Shown here: piece after piece, positions 27,270-60,211 of the stretch
Layout of the letters: each line of letters opens with the position of its first letter
Position numbering within the stretch: position 1 is the stretch's first letter
Assembly: GCA_029856045.1 (NCBI GenBank)
Contig: JAHQWG010000028.1
Location: 160,001 to 224,000 of the forward strand
Source: Promethearchaeia archaeon
GTDB lineage: Archaea > Asgardarchaeota > Lokiarchaeia > Sigyniarchaeales > SOKP01
Direction: 5' to 3'
Length of the DNA: 64,000 nucleotides
The notes under the pieces: model-generated
Told to the model about the DNA's origin: nothing
Database searches by the model: none
Seen by the model: only the letters and a program-made list of their open reading frames with translations
Translations under genes and position numbers: made by a program

Positions 27270-27441
27270 GGAAATTAACTCTTTTAATTTTTTTTTAAAG
27301 AAAAAATTAAAAATTATTATAATCCATATCAGTAAATATAAAAAAAGTAATTATACTCAATATTATGATCTATAAAGAAATTGTTTAGATTATTTTTGAT
27401 ATTTTTTTGATAAAATTAATTATTATATAGGGAAAGAAATC

Positions 27442-53196: not shown

Positions 53197-54087
53197 TTAT
53201 TTATTTGGGGCGTCTAAAATTTTAATTTTTTGTAATAAATTATTAACCCTTACACGGTGAAATTTGAGACCGATTTCTTCACCTTTAATTCCTAAGGCAA
53301 GAGCTATTAACTCAGTTAAATAAAAAACTGGGAAATTGAAATCTGTATTAAGATTTTTGTTAAGTTCCCTTTGATTAAAATCAAATTGTTGATAACATGC
53401 AGGACAAACACAAACTATACAATCAGCACCAGCCTTTTTTATGCTCTCAAGTTTATTTAATAATAATTTTTGTGAAAGTTCTTTATTACTTTTTTCAAGC
53501 GGATTTCCACAACAATCTTTCTTCAATTCATAATCTACCGGTTCGGCTCCAAGAGCTTCAACTATTACATCCAACGTTATTGGTTCAAATGGATCATCCC
53601 ATTGTATGATTTCAGATGGGCGTAGATAATGACAACCAGGGTGACATGCAACTTTTAAATCCTTTAGTGGTTTAATTATATTCTCTTTAATTAAATCAAG
53701 ATTTTCAAATAATACTTGGGCAAAATGCTTAATATTAATATTACCTTGATATTTTTTACCAATCTTATTTAAGATTGAATTAATTTCTTTCTTTTCTTCA
53801 GGGTCATTATTTAAAATATGTTGCACAGCTTTAAGAGTTTCTGTACAACCAGAGCATAGACTTAAAACATCACTATTATCATTCTCATAAAGACTTAAAT
53901 TTCTGGCTCCTAGAGCTAACCAACTCTTATGATCTAGTGCAGCAACTCCTGTTGGATCAGGACAACAAGAATATTGAGTCTGATCAGAAACATTAATACC
54001 AAGTTTTTCAAAGATTTTTCGAGCTGAGGCTTCTAAATAAGGTAATCTTCCTGGAATAACACAACCAAAAAAATATTTATAAGTCAT
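53197..54087 (-). CDS. hdrB: Heterodisulfide reductase subunit B
   Basis: FFGCVIP, SCCPDP, CSGC, HPGCHYLRP, CCG, CPAC..QFD. Confidence 0.95.
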   Translation of the reverse strand: MTYKYFFGCVIPGRLPYLEASARKIFEKLGINVSDQTQYSCCPDPTGVAALDHKSWLALGARNLSLYENDNSDVLSLCSGCTETLKAVQHILNNDPEEKKEINSILNKIGKKYQGNINIKHFAQVLFENLDLIKENIIKPLKDLKVACHPGCHYLRPSEIIQWDDPFEPITLDVIVEALGAEPVDYELKKDCCGNPLEKSNKELSQKLLLNKLESIKKAGADCIVCVCPACYQQFDFNQRELNKNLNTDFNFPVFYLTELIALALGIKGEEIGLKFHRVRVNNLLQKIKILDAPNK

Positions 54088-54093
54088 TTTTTA

Positions 54094-54624
54094 CTACTTC
54101 TCTCCTTTTTCTGTTTTTAAATATCCATTTGTATTAATTTTTTTTTCAAAATTTGTAGCTTCTAATAATTTTCCAATTTCTTCTATGTTTGCTGATTCAA
54201 CACTTGGAAGCCCCAATTGCTGCCTTCGTCTAATTATGGGTGCGGTTAAAGGAATTGCTAACCCATATTCTAAAATAGCATTTCCTTGAACATTATAAGC
54301 TTCGGGATAATTTCCTGTTTGAACAATTTTGTTTTTTAAATTATCAAATATTTCTGTTAAAAATACGTTTTGAGGACATTCCTCTACACACATCTGGCAT
54401 GTACTGCATAACCATATATTTGGCTTTTGATCTTTTATTAATAATTCTTTCAAGCCTAATAATGATTCTTCAATAATTTTTCGAGGATTATATTCACCTT
54501 CAGTAGCTAAAGCAACAGGACACGCACTTGAGCATGCTCCACATTGATAACAATAATTTAAGGAGAAATCTTCTTTTACTATCTCTTTACGAAATTCAAA
54601 ATCTACCTTTAACATACCCATCAA
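54094..54624 (-). CDS. hdrC: Heterodisulfide reductase subunit C
   Basis: CYQCGACSSACP, IWLCSTCQMCVEECP; start approximate. Confidence 0.93.
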   Translation of the reverse strand: MMGMLKVDFEFRKEIVKEDFSLNYCYQCGACSSACPVALATEGEYNPRKIIEESLLGLKELLIKDQKPNIWLCSTCQMCVEECPQNVFLTEIFDNLKNKIVQTGNYPEAYNVQGNAILEYGLAIPLTAPIIRRRQQLGLPSVESANIEEIGKLLEATNFEKKINTNGYLKTEKGEK

Positions 54625-55284: not shown

Positions 55285-56247
55285 ATGGATATTAATAAAT
55301 TACAGACAATACTTAAAAATTACCGAGCGGATCTTAATCTCATTGCCGTTGCAGTGGTTGACCAAAATGGGTTCATCATTGCTTCTGAGATGAAGAATAT
55401 AGAGGAAGATGATACTGTAATTGGTGCAACGACAGGTTTAATTGATTCTTATTTTGAAAGAATCAAAAAGGAGTTTGGATCTAAAGCAGGATTTTTTAAT
55501 ATTACATCAACAGAAGATAAAAAATTCGCATATTGTGGTGCTGGAACCGATGCAATCCTAACCAGTATTTCATTTAAAGATATTCCTGACATTAAATTGA
55601 AAGTATATTCGCTCCATATTGCTGAAAAAGTTAAAAGGATACTTGAGGGTGAAGAAAATATTTCACCAGAAATTCCAGAAATTGTAAAAGTAATGGGGAA
55701 CATGAAAGAAGGGACTTTACCAAAAGGAGAATTTACATCGAAACTTATTGTTACTGGTGATTTTCAAGTTGGAAAAACTAGTTTGATCAGGCGATATGTT
55801 GAAAATAAGTTTTCCGAAAGTTATATCTCTACTATTGGTGTTGATATATCGAAGAAATCAGTAAATTTAAGTGGAAATTGTACGATAAATTTTATTATTT
55901 GGGATATTGGAGGTCAAATTAGTCAGATGGCGCCCTATAGAAGTAGATTCTATCATGGGACTAACACAGTTTTTATTGTTCTTGACCGTACAAGAAGGTC
56001 AACCTTGGATGGTATAAATAAATGGTATAAAGATATGAAAAACTCATTTCCTGACATTAAAAACATTCCTATAGTTCTCCTTGGTAATAAATCAGATCTA
56101 ATCGAAAATATTGAAGTTACGAGTGAAGACATGAAAAGAAAAGCTGAAGAGTGTGGCTTTCATTTTATTGAAACAAGTGCAAGAACTGGAGAAAATGTTT
56201 CTGATGCTTTCAATTATATTGCTTATCGCATTCTGGAGCGTTTTTAA
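55285..56247 (+). CDS. Roadblock/LC7 domain fused to a Rab-like small GTPase
   Basis: AVAVVDQNGFIIAS roadblock-type N-terminus; GDFQVGKTS, YISTIGVD, IWDIGGQ, GNKSD, ETSA. Confidence 0.9.
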   Translation: MDINKLQTILKNYRADLNLIAVAVVDQNGFIIASEMKNIEEDDTVIGATTGLIDSYFERIKKEFGSKAGFFNITSTEDKKFAYCGAGTDAILTSISFKDIPDIKLKVYSLHIAEKVKRILEGEENISPEIPEIVKVMGNMKEGTLPKGEFTSKLIVTGDFQVGKTSLIRRYVENKFSESYISTIGVDISKKSVNLSGNCTINFIIWDIGGQISQMAPYRSRFYHGTNTVFIVLDRTRRSTLDGINKWYKDMKNSFPDIKNIPIVLLGNKSDLIENIEVTSEDMKRKAEECGFHFIETSARTGENVSDAFNYIAYRILERF

Positions 56248-56321
56248 TTTTTTTATAATAAATGAACATTTTTAATATTTTCAATATTAATTACTTATGT
56301 AAACATCATTTAAAAAAAAAT

Positions 56322-56328
56322 GGAGGTG
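56322..56328 (+). promoter_or_regulatory. Shine-Dalgarno sequence GGAGGTG for the GTG start at 56340
   Basis: Strong SD in an AT-rich intergenic segment, 11 nt before an in-frame GTG. Confidence 0.7.
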
Positions 56329-56339
56329 GATTAAAGAGA

Positions 56340-57257
56340 GTGCTGAAAGTTCTTTTTAATAACATTTGCATAACTTGAGATAACCGTGGATATTTATTCG
56401 GATTTTCTATTAGAGAAATTTCATATAAGGGAAGACATCTGTTTTATCTTGGGAAGGAAGAATTTTCAGGTCCTTGGTTCAGATTTAGAAGATCTGATCT
56501 TAAAGGAACTGAGGCCTCAGTACTTTTGAAAAACGTCGAACCAACTCCAATTTATAAGTTACTAAACACAAAAACAGGAGGGTCAATTGATCGAGTTACA
56601 ATAGATCTAGATCTCAATGAATACTTGAAAAAGAATATACATGATATAAATGGAGCAAAGAATAATTTAGATCTTTCTAAATCCATCTATATTAGAAAAT
56701 ATATTGATGTATTTCAATTTAAACAACCTTATAATATCGCTTTTTTCACGTTTAAAAATATTGCTCCATTCAAATTGGAAGATGTGTCTTTCTATATGTT
56801 TCTTGATTTTGATATCAATGGATTAGATGGATTTGATAATGATTTAGGCGTATTCGATGAAGAAGATGGAATCATTTACCAATATGATGATACCAATACT
56901 TATGCTGGTTTCTGTTCTGTTATACAACCTAGTAGTTTTGAAATTTCAAATTCTAATAAAATGTTATCGCGAGTAAAATCAATTCCATTAAATAATATCA
57001 TTGAAGGTAAACCCGGTGAAATAACTTCTGCACTTGCATGGAACTTTGGAACATTAAATGAGGGAGAATTGCTACAAATACCTATTATTATCTCTGGTGG
57101 ATTAAGCAAGGAAGAACTATTGTCAAATCTAAAAGAAGGCAAAGAAAGAGCTAATTCATTAATTCCGCAGGTATTAAAATCGATAAATTCGGGAGCAAGA
57201 CAAATTCAAGATGAAAAATTTTTAAAAATGAATGAGACCACTACAGAAGAGTGCTAA
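56340..57257 (+). CDS. Candidate selenoprotein of unknown family (305 aa; UGA codon 13 in a C-I-T-U motif)
   Basis: Frame reads GTG CTG AAA GTT CTT TTT AAT AAC ATT TGC ATA ACT TGA GAT AAC CGT... and joins the 56526 ORF with no other stop; TGA at 56376-56378; SECIS-like hairpin downstream. Confidence 0.8.
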
Positions 57258-57274
57258 GGTTCTCAAGTTTATAA

Positions 57275-57349
57275 AAAATCCAATTAATGATTCAATTAAC
57301 TAAAAAGTTTATAAGTAATTGATGAAAGGCTGGCCTAGCTTTGGATTTT
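57275..57349 (+). promoter_or_regulatory. Eukaryote-type SECIS-like element in the 3' UTR
   Basis: Helix I AAAATCCAA (57275-83) with TTGGATTTT (57341-49); core ATGA (57287-90) with TGAA (57323-26); helix II TCAATTA(A)CT with AGTAATTGA; apical AAAAA (57302-06). Confidence 0.78.
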
Positions 57350-57433
57350 ATTAAATAATTCTTTTTTTAAAACTTAATTAACAATCCCAACATTATCTTT
57401 AATATAGAATATAATCGATTTACGGATTTTTTT

Positions 57434-60211
57434 ATGAATGCTAATAAGATTGTAATTACACCAGAAACTCATTGGGATAGGGAATGGTACTTACCCTTTC
57501 AAGAGTATAGAGCAAGACTTGTCCAGCTTATGGATAGATTATTAGAAATTTTAAGGAAGGATAAAAATTATTCTAATTTTACATTAGATGGACAAACGAT
57601 CCCAGTATTAGATTATTTAGAAGTAAAACCCCAAAAGAGAGAAGAAATAGAAAAATATGTAAAAGAAGGTCGCCTTTCGATTGGACCTTTTTTCATTTTG
57701 CCGGATGAGTTTCTTATCAGTGGTGAATCAATGATAAGAAATTTAATGTTAGGGCATAAAATTGCCAGATCTTTCGGAAGAATAATGAAAGCAGGATATA
57801 TTCCAGACCCATTTGGACACATTGCACAGCTTCCACAAATTTTAAGCGGTTTTGAATTGCCATCCTTTTTATTTATGAGAGGATTTGGTAATGAATTTGA
57901 AGAAAACAACCTTAATATGGAATTTAATTGGCAAGCTCCGGGTAATGCAGCCTCAATTTTAGCGATACATTTAATAATGGGGTATGGTTCAATTGCAAAT
58001 ATTAATACAAATATACATAAAGGAAAGTACAAAAGCGCTTTAAGACAAATAAGAAGGCGAGTTAAGAATTTGGAAAAATATATTACATCTGACGTAGTTT
58101 TATTGAATAATGGTTCAGATCATTTGAATGCTCAACCTGAAATCTCTATAATTGTGAAACAGTGGAATGAAGAATATGGTAAAGATAAGATTTTAGTCCA
58201 GCAAGATTTTGAGTATTATATTAAAGAAGTATTAAAATCTAATCCTATATTAAAGAATTATCAAGGAGAATTAAGATGGGGTAAATATTTTCATTTATTA
58301 TCTGGTGTATTTTCAGCCAGAATGTGGATAAAGCAACAAAATACTAAAATTGAACATTTTTATGAAAAATACGCAGAACCATTCTCTACAATGGCTTGGG
58401 CGTTAGATAATATCTGTTCTTTTGAATATCCAAAGGATTATTTATGGACAGGATGGAAATGGTTGATAAAAAATCATCCACATGATAGTATTTGTGGGTG
58501 TAGTATTGATGAAGTCCATCAAGAAATGAAAACAAGATTTCAATGGGCGGATCAAATTGGAAATGAAATTTTAAAGGATTCGTTTTTAGAAATTGTTAAA
58601 CAAGTAAATTTGGACAAAACTGGGGATAAAAAAATTGCTCTATTTGTTCTTAATCCTCTCCCATGGGATCGAAAGGATATTACATTTTTTGATTTAATAA
58701 TTCCTATAAAGGAAAAGTCAGAACAATATCCAAATCCCATTAGATTGGTTGATAATAACGGAAAGGAAATTCCGACACAGAACTTTTTGATTGAAGAACA
58801 ACCAAGATACACAGAAGAACATAATAGCACTTATCGCTTCACATTTTTAGCAGATGTCCCGGCATTAGGTTATAGAGTCTATTATTTTATTATGGGAGAA
58901 AGTCAAAAAGATCTCAGCAATCAAAAAAATTTAATCTTAAAAGCAGAAAAGAACACATTAGAAAACACATATTTTAAAATCATAATTAACGAAGATGGAG
59001 CATTAAATGTATTAGATAAACAAAATGGCAAAAATTATAAAAATTTATGTGTATTCGAAGATGTTGGAGATTGGGGCGATGAGTATGATTATTCATGGCC
59101 CAAAAGTGGTACAGGAGATAGACGAATATTATCAACTAGTTTTAAAGATTGGAAATATAATCTTGTTGTGAAAGGACCTACCCAAATAACTGGTAAAATT
59201 GAATACACTTTCAATCTTCCAGTATCATTATCTAAAGATCGTTCTGAACGAGCCAAGGAATTAATTAACAATCAATTGTCTCTATATATTAGTCTATATG
59301 AAGATATAAAGAGAATTGATTTCAAGGTAGAATATAATAATGATAGCAAAGATCATCGATTACGAGTTCTCTTTCCCACAGGCATTAAGAGTAAGGTAGT
59401 TCATGCAGATGGACATTTTTATGTAGTTCCAAGAAATGTGGAGTTACCTAATGATGAAAGATGGGCCCAAAAAGCACTTGGAACCAATCATGAAAAAGAT
59501 TTTGTTGCGGTTAATGATAATAGGACATGTATAGCTGTTTTAAACAAGGGTTTACCTGAATATGAGGCAATACAGAATGAAGATGGAACAATAACTTTTG
59601 CAATAACATTACTAAGGTGTGTTGAGTGGTTATCAAGGGCAGATTTAGCTACTAGAAGATCAAATGCAGGTCCCGATTTAAAAACACCTGAAGCACAGTG
59701 TTTAGGAGACCATACTTTTGAATTTTCACTGGTAATCCAAGAAGGTTTAGGTGATTGGTTAAATTCAAGAATACACATTTATGGTAAAGAATTCAATTGT
59801 CCCTTAATTTCATTTCTTCCTTCAAGTGTAAATTCAATGTATCATGCATTAAATAAAATCCTTTTCTTAGGAATGACTTTTTTAAAATTGGAATTACAAC
59901 ATAAACCAAAAAATCTTCCATTAAGCTTTAGCTTTCTAAAAATTGACAACCCCAATGTGCAGTTATCTGCCTTAAAAAAGGCTGAAAGTGGAGATTATTT
60001 AATAATTCGACTTATAAATATATCAAACAATACTGAAAAGGCAAAACTTAGTTTTTATAATAATATTAAAAATATTGAAATTCTAAATCTTTTAGAAGAG
60101 AAACCAACTAATAGAATAAAAGCAAAACTTTTTCAAATCGACACAAATCAATTGGAAATTATATTAGAACCCCATGTATTAGCTAATATTAAGGTAATAA
60201 TTTCAAAATGA
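57434..60211 (+). CDS. Glycoside hydrolase family 38 alpha-mannosidase (MngB-like)
   Basis: THWDREWY, LDGQ, PDEFLISGES..RNL, YIPDPFGH, HPHDSICGCSID. Confidence 0.93.
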   Translation: MNANKIVITPETHWDREWYLPFQEYRARLVQLMDRLLEILRKDKNYSNFTLDGQTIPVLDYLEVKPQKREEIEKYVKEGRLSIGPFFILPDEFLISGESMIRNLMLGHKIARSFGRIMKAGYIPDPFGHIAQLPQILSGFELPSFLFMRGFGNEFEENNLNMEFNWQAPGNAASILAIHLIMGYGSIANINTNIHKGKYKSALRQIRRRVKNLEKYITSDVVLLNNGSDHLNAQPEISIIVKQWNEEYGKDKILVQQDFEYYIKEVLKSNPILKNYQGELRWGKYFHLLSGVFSARMWIKQQNTKIEHFYEKYAEPFSTMAWALDNICSFEYPKDYLWTGWKWLIKNHPHDSICGCSIDEVHQEMKTRFQWADQIGNEILKDSFLEIVKQVNLDKTGDKKIALFVLNPLPWDRKDITFFDLIIPIKEKSEQYPNPIRLVDNNGKEIPTQNFLIEEQPRYTEEHNSTYRFTFLADVPALGYRVYYFIMGESQKDLSNQKNLILKAEKNTLENTYFKIIINEDGALNVLDKQNGKNYKNLCVFEDVGDWGDEYDYSWPKSGTGDRRILSTSFKDWKYNLVVKGPTQITGKIEYTFNLPVSLSKDRSERAKELINNQLSLYISLYEDIKRIDFKVEYNNDSKDHRLRVLFPTGIKSKVVHADGHFYVVPRNVELPNDERWAQKALGTNHEKDFVAVNDNRTCIAVLNKGLPEYEAIQNEDGTITFAITLLRCVEWLSRADLATRRSNAGPDLKTPEAQCLGDHTFEFSLVIQEGLGDWLNSRIHIYGKEFNCPLISFLPSSVNSMYHALNKILFLGMTFLKLELQHKPKNLPLSFSFLKIDNPNVQLSALKKAESGDYLIIRLINISNNTEKAKLSFYNNIKNIEILNLLEEKPTNRIKAKLFQIDTNQLEIILEPHVLANIKVIISK

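Follow-up and report, generated by a model that had tools for sequence, protein, structure and literature searches.

A probable eukaryote-like SECIS of the Asgard type downstream of a probable, unannotated selenoprotein gene in a Lokiarchaeia genome

Results

Organization of the locus

The window analysed here is the 64,000-nt stretch from position 160,001 to 224,000 (forward strand) of contig JAHQWG010000028.1, in the Asgard archaeal assembly GCA_029856045.1. It carries a Ras-family GTPase gene (55285–56247, + strand, 320 aa; Pfam Ras, E = 1.6e-38), with genes for HdrB-like (CCG domain) and HdrC-like (4Fe-4S) proteins, identified by Pfam, diverging from it on the − strand (53197–54624) as part of an Hdr-Flx cluster. 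Directly downstream of the GTPase gene and on the same strand lies an ORF that had been called from a TTG at 56526. Its frame is open upstream as far as a GTG at 56340, and a TGA at 56376–56378 is the sole interruption. Read from the GTG to the TAA stop at 57255–57257, the gene (56340–57257, + strand) has 305 codons, of which the TGA is codon 13, and a Shine–Dalgarno-like GGAGGTG (56323–56329, + strand) stands 10 nt ahead of the start. If the TGA is decoded as selenocysteine, which becomes U13 of an ICIT-U motif, the N-terminus of the product is VLKVLFNNICIT-U-DNRGYLFGFSIRE. An RNA hairpin (57275–57349, + strand) begins 17 nt past the stop codon and is followed by a T-rich tract, TTCTTTTTTT (57359–57368, + strand), which likely marks the transcript end just past the hairpin; a T-run is found downstream of the element in relatives too.

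The gene pair is conserved. At 76 of 80 orthologous loci, and at two loci of homologues that have cysteine at the TGA position, the gene immediately upstream encodes a Ras-family GTPase and has the same orientation; because the same kind of GTPase gene precedes them, we regard these two Cys-form genes as positional counterparts. Such conservation of gene order suggests a functional link between the GTPase and the putative selenoprotein. A GH38 gene lies downstream in the window (57434–60211), and a GH2 gene lies upstream of the GTPase gene in the Cys-homologue loci L107 and L108. The glycoside hydrolase neighbours, together with the predicted protein fold described below, which resembles non-catalytic N-domains of GH94, GH15 and GH116 enzymes, may be a coincidence.

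Structure of the hairpin

Direct reading bears out three elements of the initial annotation: a 9-bp lower helix, formed by AAAAUCCAA (57275–57283) and UUGGAUUUU (57341–57349); a core in which AUGAU (57287–57291) stands opposite UGAA (57323–57326); and an AAAAA run with 11 nt between it and the AUGA. On the 5' side, the internal loop (57284–57290) consists of UUA followed by AUGA (57287–57290). The upper helix (5' strand, 57291–57298) opens with U.U at 57291/57323 and continues with 7 Watson–Crick bp between U57292–A57298 and U57316–A57322. Its 3' strand (57316–57322) runs into the UGAA (57323–57326) that provides the G.A/A.G core. The apical loop (57299–57315) has AAAAA at 57302–57306 and AAG at its end (57313–57315).

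The upper helix had also been described as 9 bp with one bulged A. The pairs that this requires do exist, since bulging of A57299 allows C57300–G57315 and U57301–A57314 to form, which shortens the apical loop from 17 to 12 nt. Relatives, however, favour 7–8 bp plus U.U and a 17-nt loop ending in AAG, and from this comparison of sequences we favour the latter reading, which also matches the ‘AG before the stem’ signature of Loki SECIS.

On the 3' side of the internal loop, the G+C-rich insert GGCTGGCCTAGC (57328–57339) lies in a mini-hairpin (57327–57341) with the pairs G57329–C57339, C57330–G57338 and U57331–A57337, flanking pairs and a GGCC loop. RNAfold predicts both helices, together with the mini-hairpin, in the minimum-energy structure (−13.8 kcal/mol). 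Its z-score against dinucleotide shuffles is nevertheless only −0.79, with 41 of 200 shuffles folding equally well, so that the single-sequence fold is within chance expectation for a genome of 29% G+C. A loose AUGA/AAA/GA descriptor, moreover, finds 86 matches in the genome. Taken by themselves, these figures would suit a chance structure in AT-rich DNA, a reading to which the comparative results of the next section leave a vanishingly small probability.

Conservation and covariation of the element

We scanned the 130 nt past the stop codon in 80 TGA-bearing species-level genome loci, and found the same RNA element after nearly all of them, as the initial annotation had anticipated for a SECIS. 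Its consensus reads, in the 5' half, AAAUCC, 4 nt, UAAUGA, UUCAAAUAA, AAAAA, a CC..GG ministem and AAAG, and in the 3' half UUAUUUGA, UGAA, the hairpin ACUC-UGCUC-GAGU, 2 nt and GGAUUU. In most orthologues the CC/GG ministem of the apical loop has 2–4 bp (the type II form); the 17-nt loop of the window element is without it.

Among 71 aligned orthologous elements, 92.7% of the cells of a four-helix structure can pair, and compensatory change is found in 14 of its 20 pairs. None of 500 shuffles paired as well, and slid controls reached at most 50%. The lower helix (helix 1) covaries. The upper helix, whose family form is 8 bp plus U.U, can pair in 99% of cells and has compensatory change in 5 of its 8 pairs; in the 3' hairpin (helix 4) all four pairs have such change across the family. 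RNAalifold, given the same 71 elements, recovers the upper helix and the 3' hairpin. Invariance is seen at the unpaired U, G and A of AUGA (71/71) and at the A in the 3' GA, and the A-run is invariant or close to it. Core variants occur at two loci: L076 (2120–2199) has AGGA for AUGA, and L008 (2134–2209) has AA for the 3' GA. An AUGA_AA variant has been reported for VhuU and FrhA, and the AA core of L008 matches it.

Two covariance models were used. The first, R1, matched all 16 searched loci that have a family-type element, at the expected place and with 56–83 bits, although its seed excluded 14 of those 16. One TGA locus, L054, has a sequence-divergent AUGA...GA hairpin in place of the family-type element. 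At three loci of Cys homologues R1 gave no significant match (best 20 bits, E = 0.18), in keeping with the expectation that the element would be missing behind Cys alleles. At one of these, L107, a small palindromic AUGA...GA hairpin can be seen by eye past the stop, with neither an A-rich loop nor a model match, and we provisionally treat it as chance or a terminator.

The second model, R2, was built solely from distant orthologues outside the clade of the window, and matches 57274–57348 with 52.6 bits (E = 2.4e-9 for the window, 1.3e-7 for the 3.3-Mb genome). This is its sole significant match in either. The R2 match and the covariation among 71 elements place the hairpin comparatively beyond chance: covariation in four helices, conservation in ∼80 species and an independent model with E about 1e-7 genome-wide all speak against an accidental fold, and the R1 and R2 matches together with the covariation refute it.

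With published families the result was different. An Rfam search of 56200–57500 in E-value mode returned no SECIS family at E ≤ 10, and in gathering mode nothing in the whole window reached its gathering score. Mariotti 2016 (PMC4989117) and Huang 2024 (PMC11227280) state in their text that SECISearch3 and eukaryotic, archaeal and bacterial SECIS models fail on Asgard SECIS; because published models likewise fail on such elements, the missing Rfam match carries little weight. All of the checks named with the initial annotation that could be carried out favoured it, and the missing Rfam match does not refute it.

The best Rfam match was to the C/D-box snoRNA snoR21 (25.5 bits, E = 0.83), and a C'-box-like UGAUGA is present at 57320–57325, so that the hairpin might instead be a C/D-box sRNA of the archaeal kind, or some other free-standing kink-turn RNA, lying here by accident. 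The score, however, is below the gathering score of 45, the 3' end lacks a D box (CUGA), the motif on the 5' side is AAUGAUU and not RUGAUGA, and the spacers are too short for guides of 10–12 nt. Nor would an accidental neighbour be expected to hold a fixed place directly past the stop codon in ∼80 species, or to accompany the TGA and go undetected with Cys at three loci. We consider this origin highly improbable, and reject the snoRNA identity; the kink-turn-like UGAUGA explains the match.

Evidence for translation through the TGA

The protein encoded by 56340–57257 has no Pfam family. Among 5.8 billion proteins we found 187 relatives, and those named all come from Asgard MAGs. Nearly all are annotated as 286–288 aa, start with MGFSIKE and cover 93–94% of the query, and database annotations start all the orthologues at Met20 or later. 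These annotations favour an alternative in which the TGA is a true stop closing an upstream ORF of 12 conserved codons, translation of the main protein begins further downstream (in most species at Met20), and the 3' element is a kink-turn RNA with some other job (for example in mRNA stability, termination or L7Ae binding).

In the clade of the window, however, the family Met20 is replaced by Phe, and neither its gene nor its clade offers an in-frame ATG, GTG or TTG from the TGA up to codon 63 (TTG 56526). Residues 14–62 are clearly homologous to the family, and because no start codon is available from the TGA to codon 63, they can be made solely by read-through of the TGA. A true stop is hard to reconcile with conservation of these residues.

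We also read the orthologues in frame, in five contigs of close relatives and in the 80 species-level genome loci. All but two loci keep the N-terminal extension and the TGA, with the consensus (I)VLKV.[FW][NH][DE][IV][LF]A[TA]-TGA-N..GY[LVI]MGFSIKE. Per-codon counts give TGA at codon 13 in 78 of 78 orthologues read in frame, and the residues around it vary at synonymous positions: Leu2 alternates between TTA and CTN, Ala11 is GCT, GCA, GCG or GCC, Thr12 uses four codons, Gly17 all four GGN and Tyr18 TAT or TAC. Codons 14–19, between the TGA and Met20, are thus constrained at the amino-acid level in the same frame, which a stop at codon 13 would not predict. In contigs from independent metagenome studies, the TGA, codons 19–20 and the SECIS do not differ from the window.

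An AGGAGGT stands at the place of the window's Shine–Dalgarno sequence in 76 orthologous loci, and precedes the N-terminal extension rather than Met20. In favour of the true-stop alternative, the extension has no canonical start codon in most orthologues: the codon at the start position, ∼9 nt past a perfect AGGAGGT, is mostly ATA (also ATT or ATC), and TTG, GTG or ATG occupies it in few. The start of the extension in these orthologues is accordingly a predicted one, placed by Shine–Dalgarno spacing only, and its codons suggest near-cognate initiation of the putative selenoprotein in the L011–L086 loci.

Two species carry a hairpin-forming insert directly after TGA-A, of 31 nt (L046:1158–1200) and 29 nt (L064:1160–1200; CP070805.1), that breaks the frame. 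Its exact removal restores U-N-[AT]-A-G-Y-V-M. The extension and the SECIS are retained at both loci, and the main ORF is intact (80 synonymous versus 33 non-synonymous codon differences). Candidate explanations are a small mRNA intron, a bypass element, or uncoupling of the Sec extension from the main ORF. A frame break after the TGA that leaves the main ORF intact is also a point for the true-stop alternative. Against it stand, besides the coding constraint, the Cys homologues described next, which are continuous ORFs with Cys at this position, the Shine–Dalgarno sequence ahead of the extension, and the core and layout that the 3' element has in common with the SECIS of known selenoprotein genes of the same genome. 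We judge a true stop to be quite improbable.

Cys homologues and predicted fold

An exhaustive HMMER search of 1.8 billion cluster representatives yielded distant full-length homologues of 316–318 aa that have 21–28% identity and include the extension. They are continuous ORFs with Cys at the Sec position, ICIT-U aligning with ICLNC, ICVNC, ICIDC and similar sequences (ICxxC, ICxxCK). When 35 Sec and Cys forms are aligned, every sequence has C or U in the column of U13, and a C-terminal Cys (C305) is nearly invariant. Such pairing of Sec with Cys is the classical criterion for a selenoprotein.

In P0125, a divergent subfamily of higher G+C content, an in-frame TGA is likewise present, within the motif YVCTV-U (L110:1400–1500; GCA_054386815.1). 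The 3' hairpin there (L110:2365–2440) is of another form, comprising AUGA, a 6-bp stem and GA and lacking an A-rich loop.

AlphaFold2, run with the 35-sequence alignment, gave a confident model (mean pLDDT 87, pTM 0.88), mostly beta with a long C-terminal helix; residues 11–14, around the Sec, have low confidence. The Foldseek matches of the model (E down to 1e-8, TM about 0.5) are beta-supersandwich domains from the N-termini of GH94 phosphorylases, GH15 glucoamylase and GH116 glucosidases; the catalytic barrels of these enzymes lie outside the matched region. U13 might act with C305 in a redox or metal role.

Selenocysteine machinery and other SECIS-like elements of the genome

The genome encodes a tRNA-Sec (61 bits versus a gathering score of 47; ARAGORN anticodon TCA), SepSecS (387 bits), SelB/EFSec (gene at contig C1:5689; 268 bits, above cut-off), a PSTK-like protein (147 bits, E = 6e-43, below the curated cut-off) and a SelD with one in-frame TGA. 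Against this genome R1 gave only weak matches (E 0.2–5), in coding or unrelated sequence, and is too family-specific for locating other SECIS. The descriptor scan, however, revealed five canonical Loki SECIS, each with AUGA, a 9-bp helix, an 11-nt loop RAAAA...UAG and GA. Three of these lie 2 nt past, or overlap, the stop of VhuD genes; each such VhuD contains two U and is downstream of an HdrA with three U. A type II-like, SECIS-like hairpin follows SelD at 12 nt. As had been proposed for comparison, the elements behind selD and hdrA-vhuD share the core and layout of the window element. The distance of ∼900 nt between UGA and SECIS, presented by the initial annotation as implying long-range recoding of eukaryotic style, is accurate (counted from the TGA, the element starts after 899 nt and its AUGA after 911 nt), but ordinary here: each hdrA-vhuD pair has one common SECIS more than 2 kb past the first UGA.

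Two further ORFs have a canonical Loki SECIS behind them. One, of 117 aa (G000:C32:27064–27417; L111), has two adjacent in-frame TGA (..DAGC-U-U-EKV..) and no Pfam match, and its SECIS (AUGA at 27423) lies 6 nt past the stop; it may belong to the published Prx-like family. The other, of 51 aa (G000:C10:2356–2511; L112), has one predicted membrane helix and a C-terminal GGGG-U-C, with its SECIS 35 nt downstream (AUGA at 2546). Its only Pfam match, to ETRAMP, is below cut-off (22.6 bits versus 29.1) and falls on the predicted membrane segment. None of the published families of Asgard selenoproteins includes this ORF, which may encode a second unrecognised selenoprotein.

A third helix on the 3' strand

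The G+C-rich insert had been called unusual, and a mini-hairpin had been offered as something that it may form. The hairpin is predicted by RNAfold and supported by the compensatory change in its four pairs, but it is not unusual, being common to the six other SECIS-like elements of the genome. Of the seven elements, the window's included, RNAfold folds six into a lower helix, a SECIS helix and a 3'-strand hairpin; for the seventh, its prediction lacks the SECIS helix but has the other two. On the 3' strand, the hairpin separates GA from the lower helix, and its loop usually contains UGC.

Sec-type VhuD loci were collected by a protein search using Sec-type VhuD; a FlpD family search over 60 genomes had given mainly Cys-type paralogues. 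The VhuD SECIS of 12 other genomes of the same family have the same three-helix layout, with an AGC loop. Among 16 aligned elements of this set, 88% of cells pair and 14 of 19 pairs show compensatory change, with none of 500 shuffles scoring as high and slid controls reaching at most 55%. From these alignments, the 3' hairpin is evidently a regular part of SECIS in this genome and its relatives. In the running text of Mariotti 2016 and Huang 2024, and in further literature searches, we found no mention of a 3' hairpin or of a three-way SECIS junction.

Discussion

We conclude that 57275–57349 is very probably a real SECIS of the eukaryote-like type known from Asgard archaea, and that 56340–57257 is an unannotated selenoprotein gene that carries it in the 3' UTR of its mRNA. 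The observations behind this are a covarying RNA structure, constraint on the coding sequence on both sides of the UGA, the alignment of Sec with Cys, the association of the element with the TGA, and the machinery genes of the host. We found no record of this gene family as a selenoprotein in studies of 2016, 2021 and 2024, in a 2026 review, or in the databases and further literature searched. Both the selenoprotein family and the three-helix layout appear to be new to the text of the literature surveyed.

In the mechanism that we envisage, the element has a three-helix fold. Its upper helix starts at the kink-turn-like AUGA/GA core and bears the A-rich loop, and between this core and the lower helix the 3' strand forms a small hairpin. 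The folded element would recruit the Sec-specific elongation factor with Sec-tRNA(Sec), either directly or via an adaptor, and the ribosome would then decode the UGA at codon 13, ∼900 nt upstream, as selenocysteine rather than as stop. In this scheme, the insertion of Sec, the factor bound by the element and any function of the 3' hairpin are inferred from the observations.

A broader proposal is that Asgard SECIS are generally three-way junctions and, jointly, that the gene founds a new, nearly universal Lokiarchaeia-type selenoprotein family. We advance this double claim tentatively, as one that falls a little short of being probable. If Asgard SECIS are three-way junctions, the conserved 3'-strand hairpin with its (U/A)GC loop, beside the kink-turn, could be the docking site for EFSec or for a factor that replaces SBP2. 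The new family, for its part, may be one that combines Sec at residue 13, a conserved C-terminal Cys, a beta-supersandwich fold and genetic coupling to a Ras-like GTPase.

Asgard SECIS have been proposed as a link between archaeal and eukaryotic selenocysteine decoding, in which recognition without SBP2 is at issue. The locus adds a selenoprotein family missed by homology-based surveys (seven families in the 2024 survey and the 2026 review), likely because the Sec is 13 codons from the start and gene callers pick a later Met; ∼80 species-level genomes carry the gene mis-annotated as a truncated ‘hypothetical protein’. With ∼80 orthologous elements and the VhuD set, there is covariation enough to define the full SECIS architecture, including the third helix, and this makes SECIS recognition open to mutagenesis.

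Among known systems, the SECIS of euryarchaea (Methanococcales, Methanopyrus) resembles the window element in its location in the 3' UTR of an archaeal selenoprotein mRNA. It has a GAA_A bulge and G+C-rich helices, whereas the window element has neither and carries an AUGA/GA core instead, so that the geometry is of the eukaryotic type and not of the Methanococcales GAA type, as the initial annotation had held. The k-junction, attributed to Wang et al. in 2014, is reportedly a kink-turn elaborated to a three-way junction by a third helix on the non-bulged strand beside the G.A pairs; the mini-hairpin occupies the corresponding place, in a likeness that is topological only.

With eukaryotic SECIS (Rfam RF00031 and relatives, in which an AUGA_AA_GA kink-turn is bound by SBP2) the element shares a 3' UTR location at long range (∼900 nt), the AUGA...GA quartet, unpaired adenines ∼11 nt past AUGA, and two helices around an internal loop. 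It differs in its shorter upper helix, in the third helix on the 3' strand of the internal loop, and in giving no Rfam SECIS match at E ≤ 10; published surveys have not detected an SBP2 gene in Asgard archaea.

Compared with Loki and Asgard SECIS as described in the text of PMC4989117 and PMC11227280, the window element likewise has an upper helix of ∼8–9 positions with AUGA immediately 5' of it and GA 3' of it, an A-rich loop ending in AG, and a location immediately 3' of the selenoprotein CDS; like them, it is missed by eukaryotic and euryarchaeal models. It falls within the type I descriptor given in the text of Huang 2024 (GA_GA core, 7–15 bp stem, 8–20 nt loop). Its loop of 17 nt, in contrast, departs from the fixed 11 nt described there for canonical Loki SECIS (PrxL, VhuU, HdrA-VhuD), and most orthologues of its family have a ministem and in this resemble the SelD type II form; the broader type I/II descriptors of 2024 still accommodate it. 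The text of these papers describes neither a lower helix nor a covarying 3' hairpin, both of which are present in the window element, and the seven published Asgard families, as listed in that text, do not include the gene of the window. Nevertheless, the upper helix is within the 7–15 bp range (9 bp in canonical Loki SECIS) and covaries, the loop begins A-rich and ends in AAG (AAAAA...AAAG in the family consensus), the element lies just 3' of a gene whose in-frame UGA aligns with Cys, and the host genome encodes the Sec machinery, its PSTK-like gene being below the curated cut-off.
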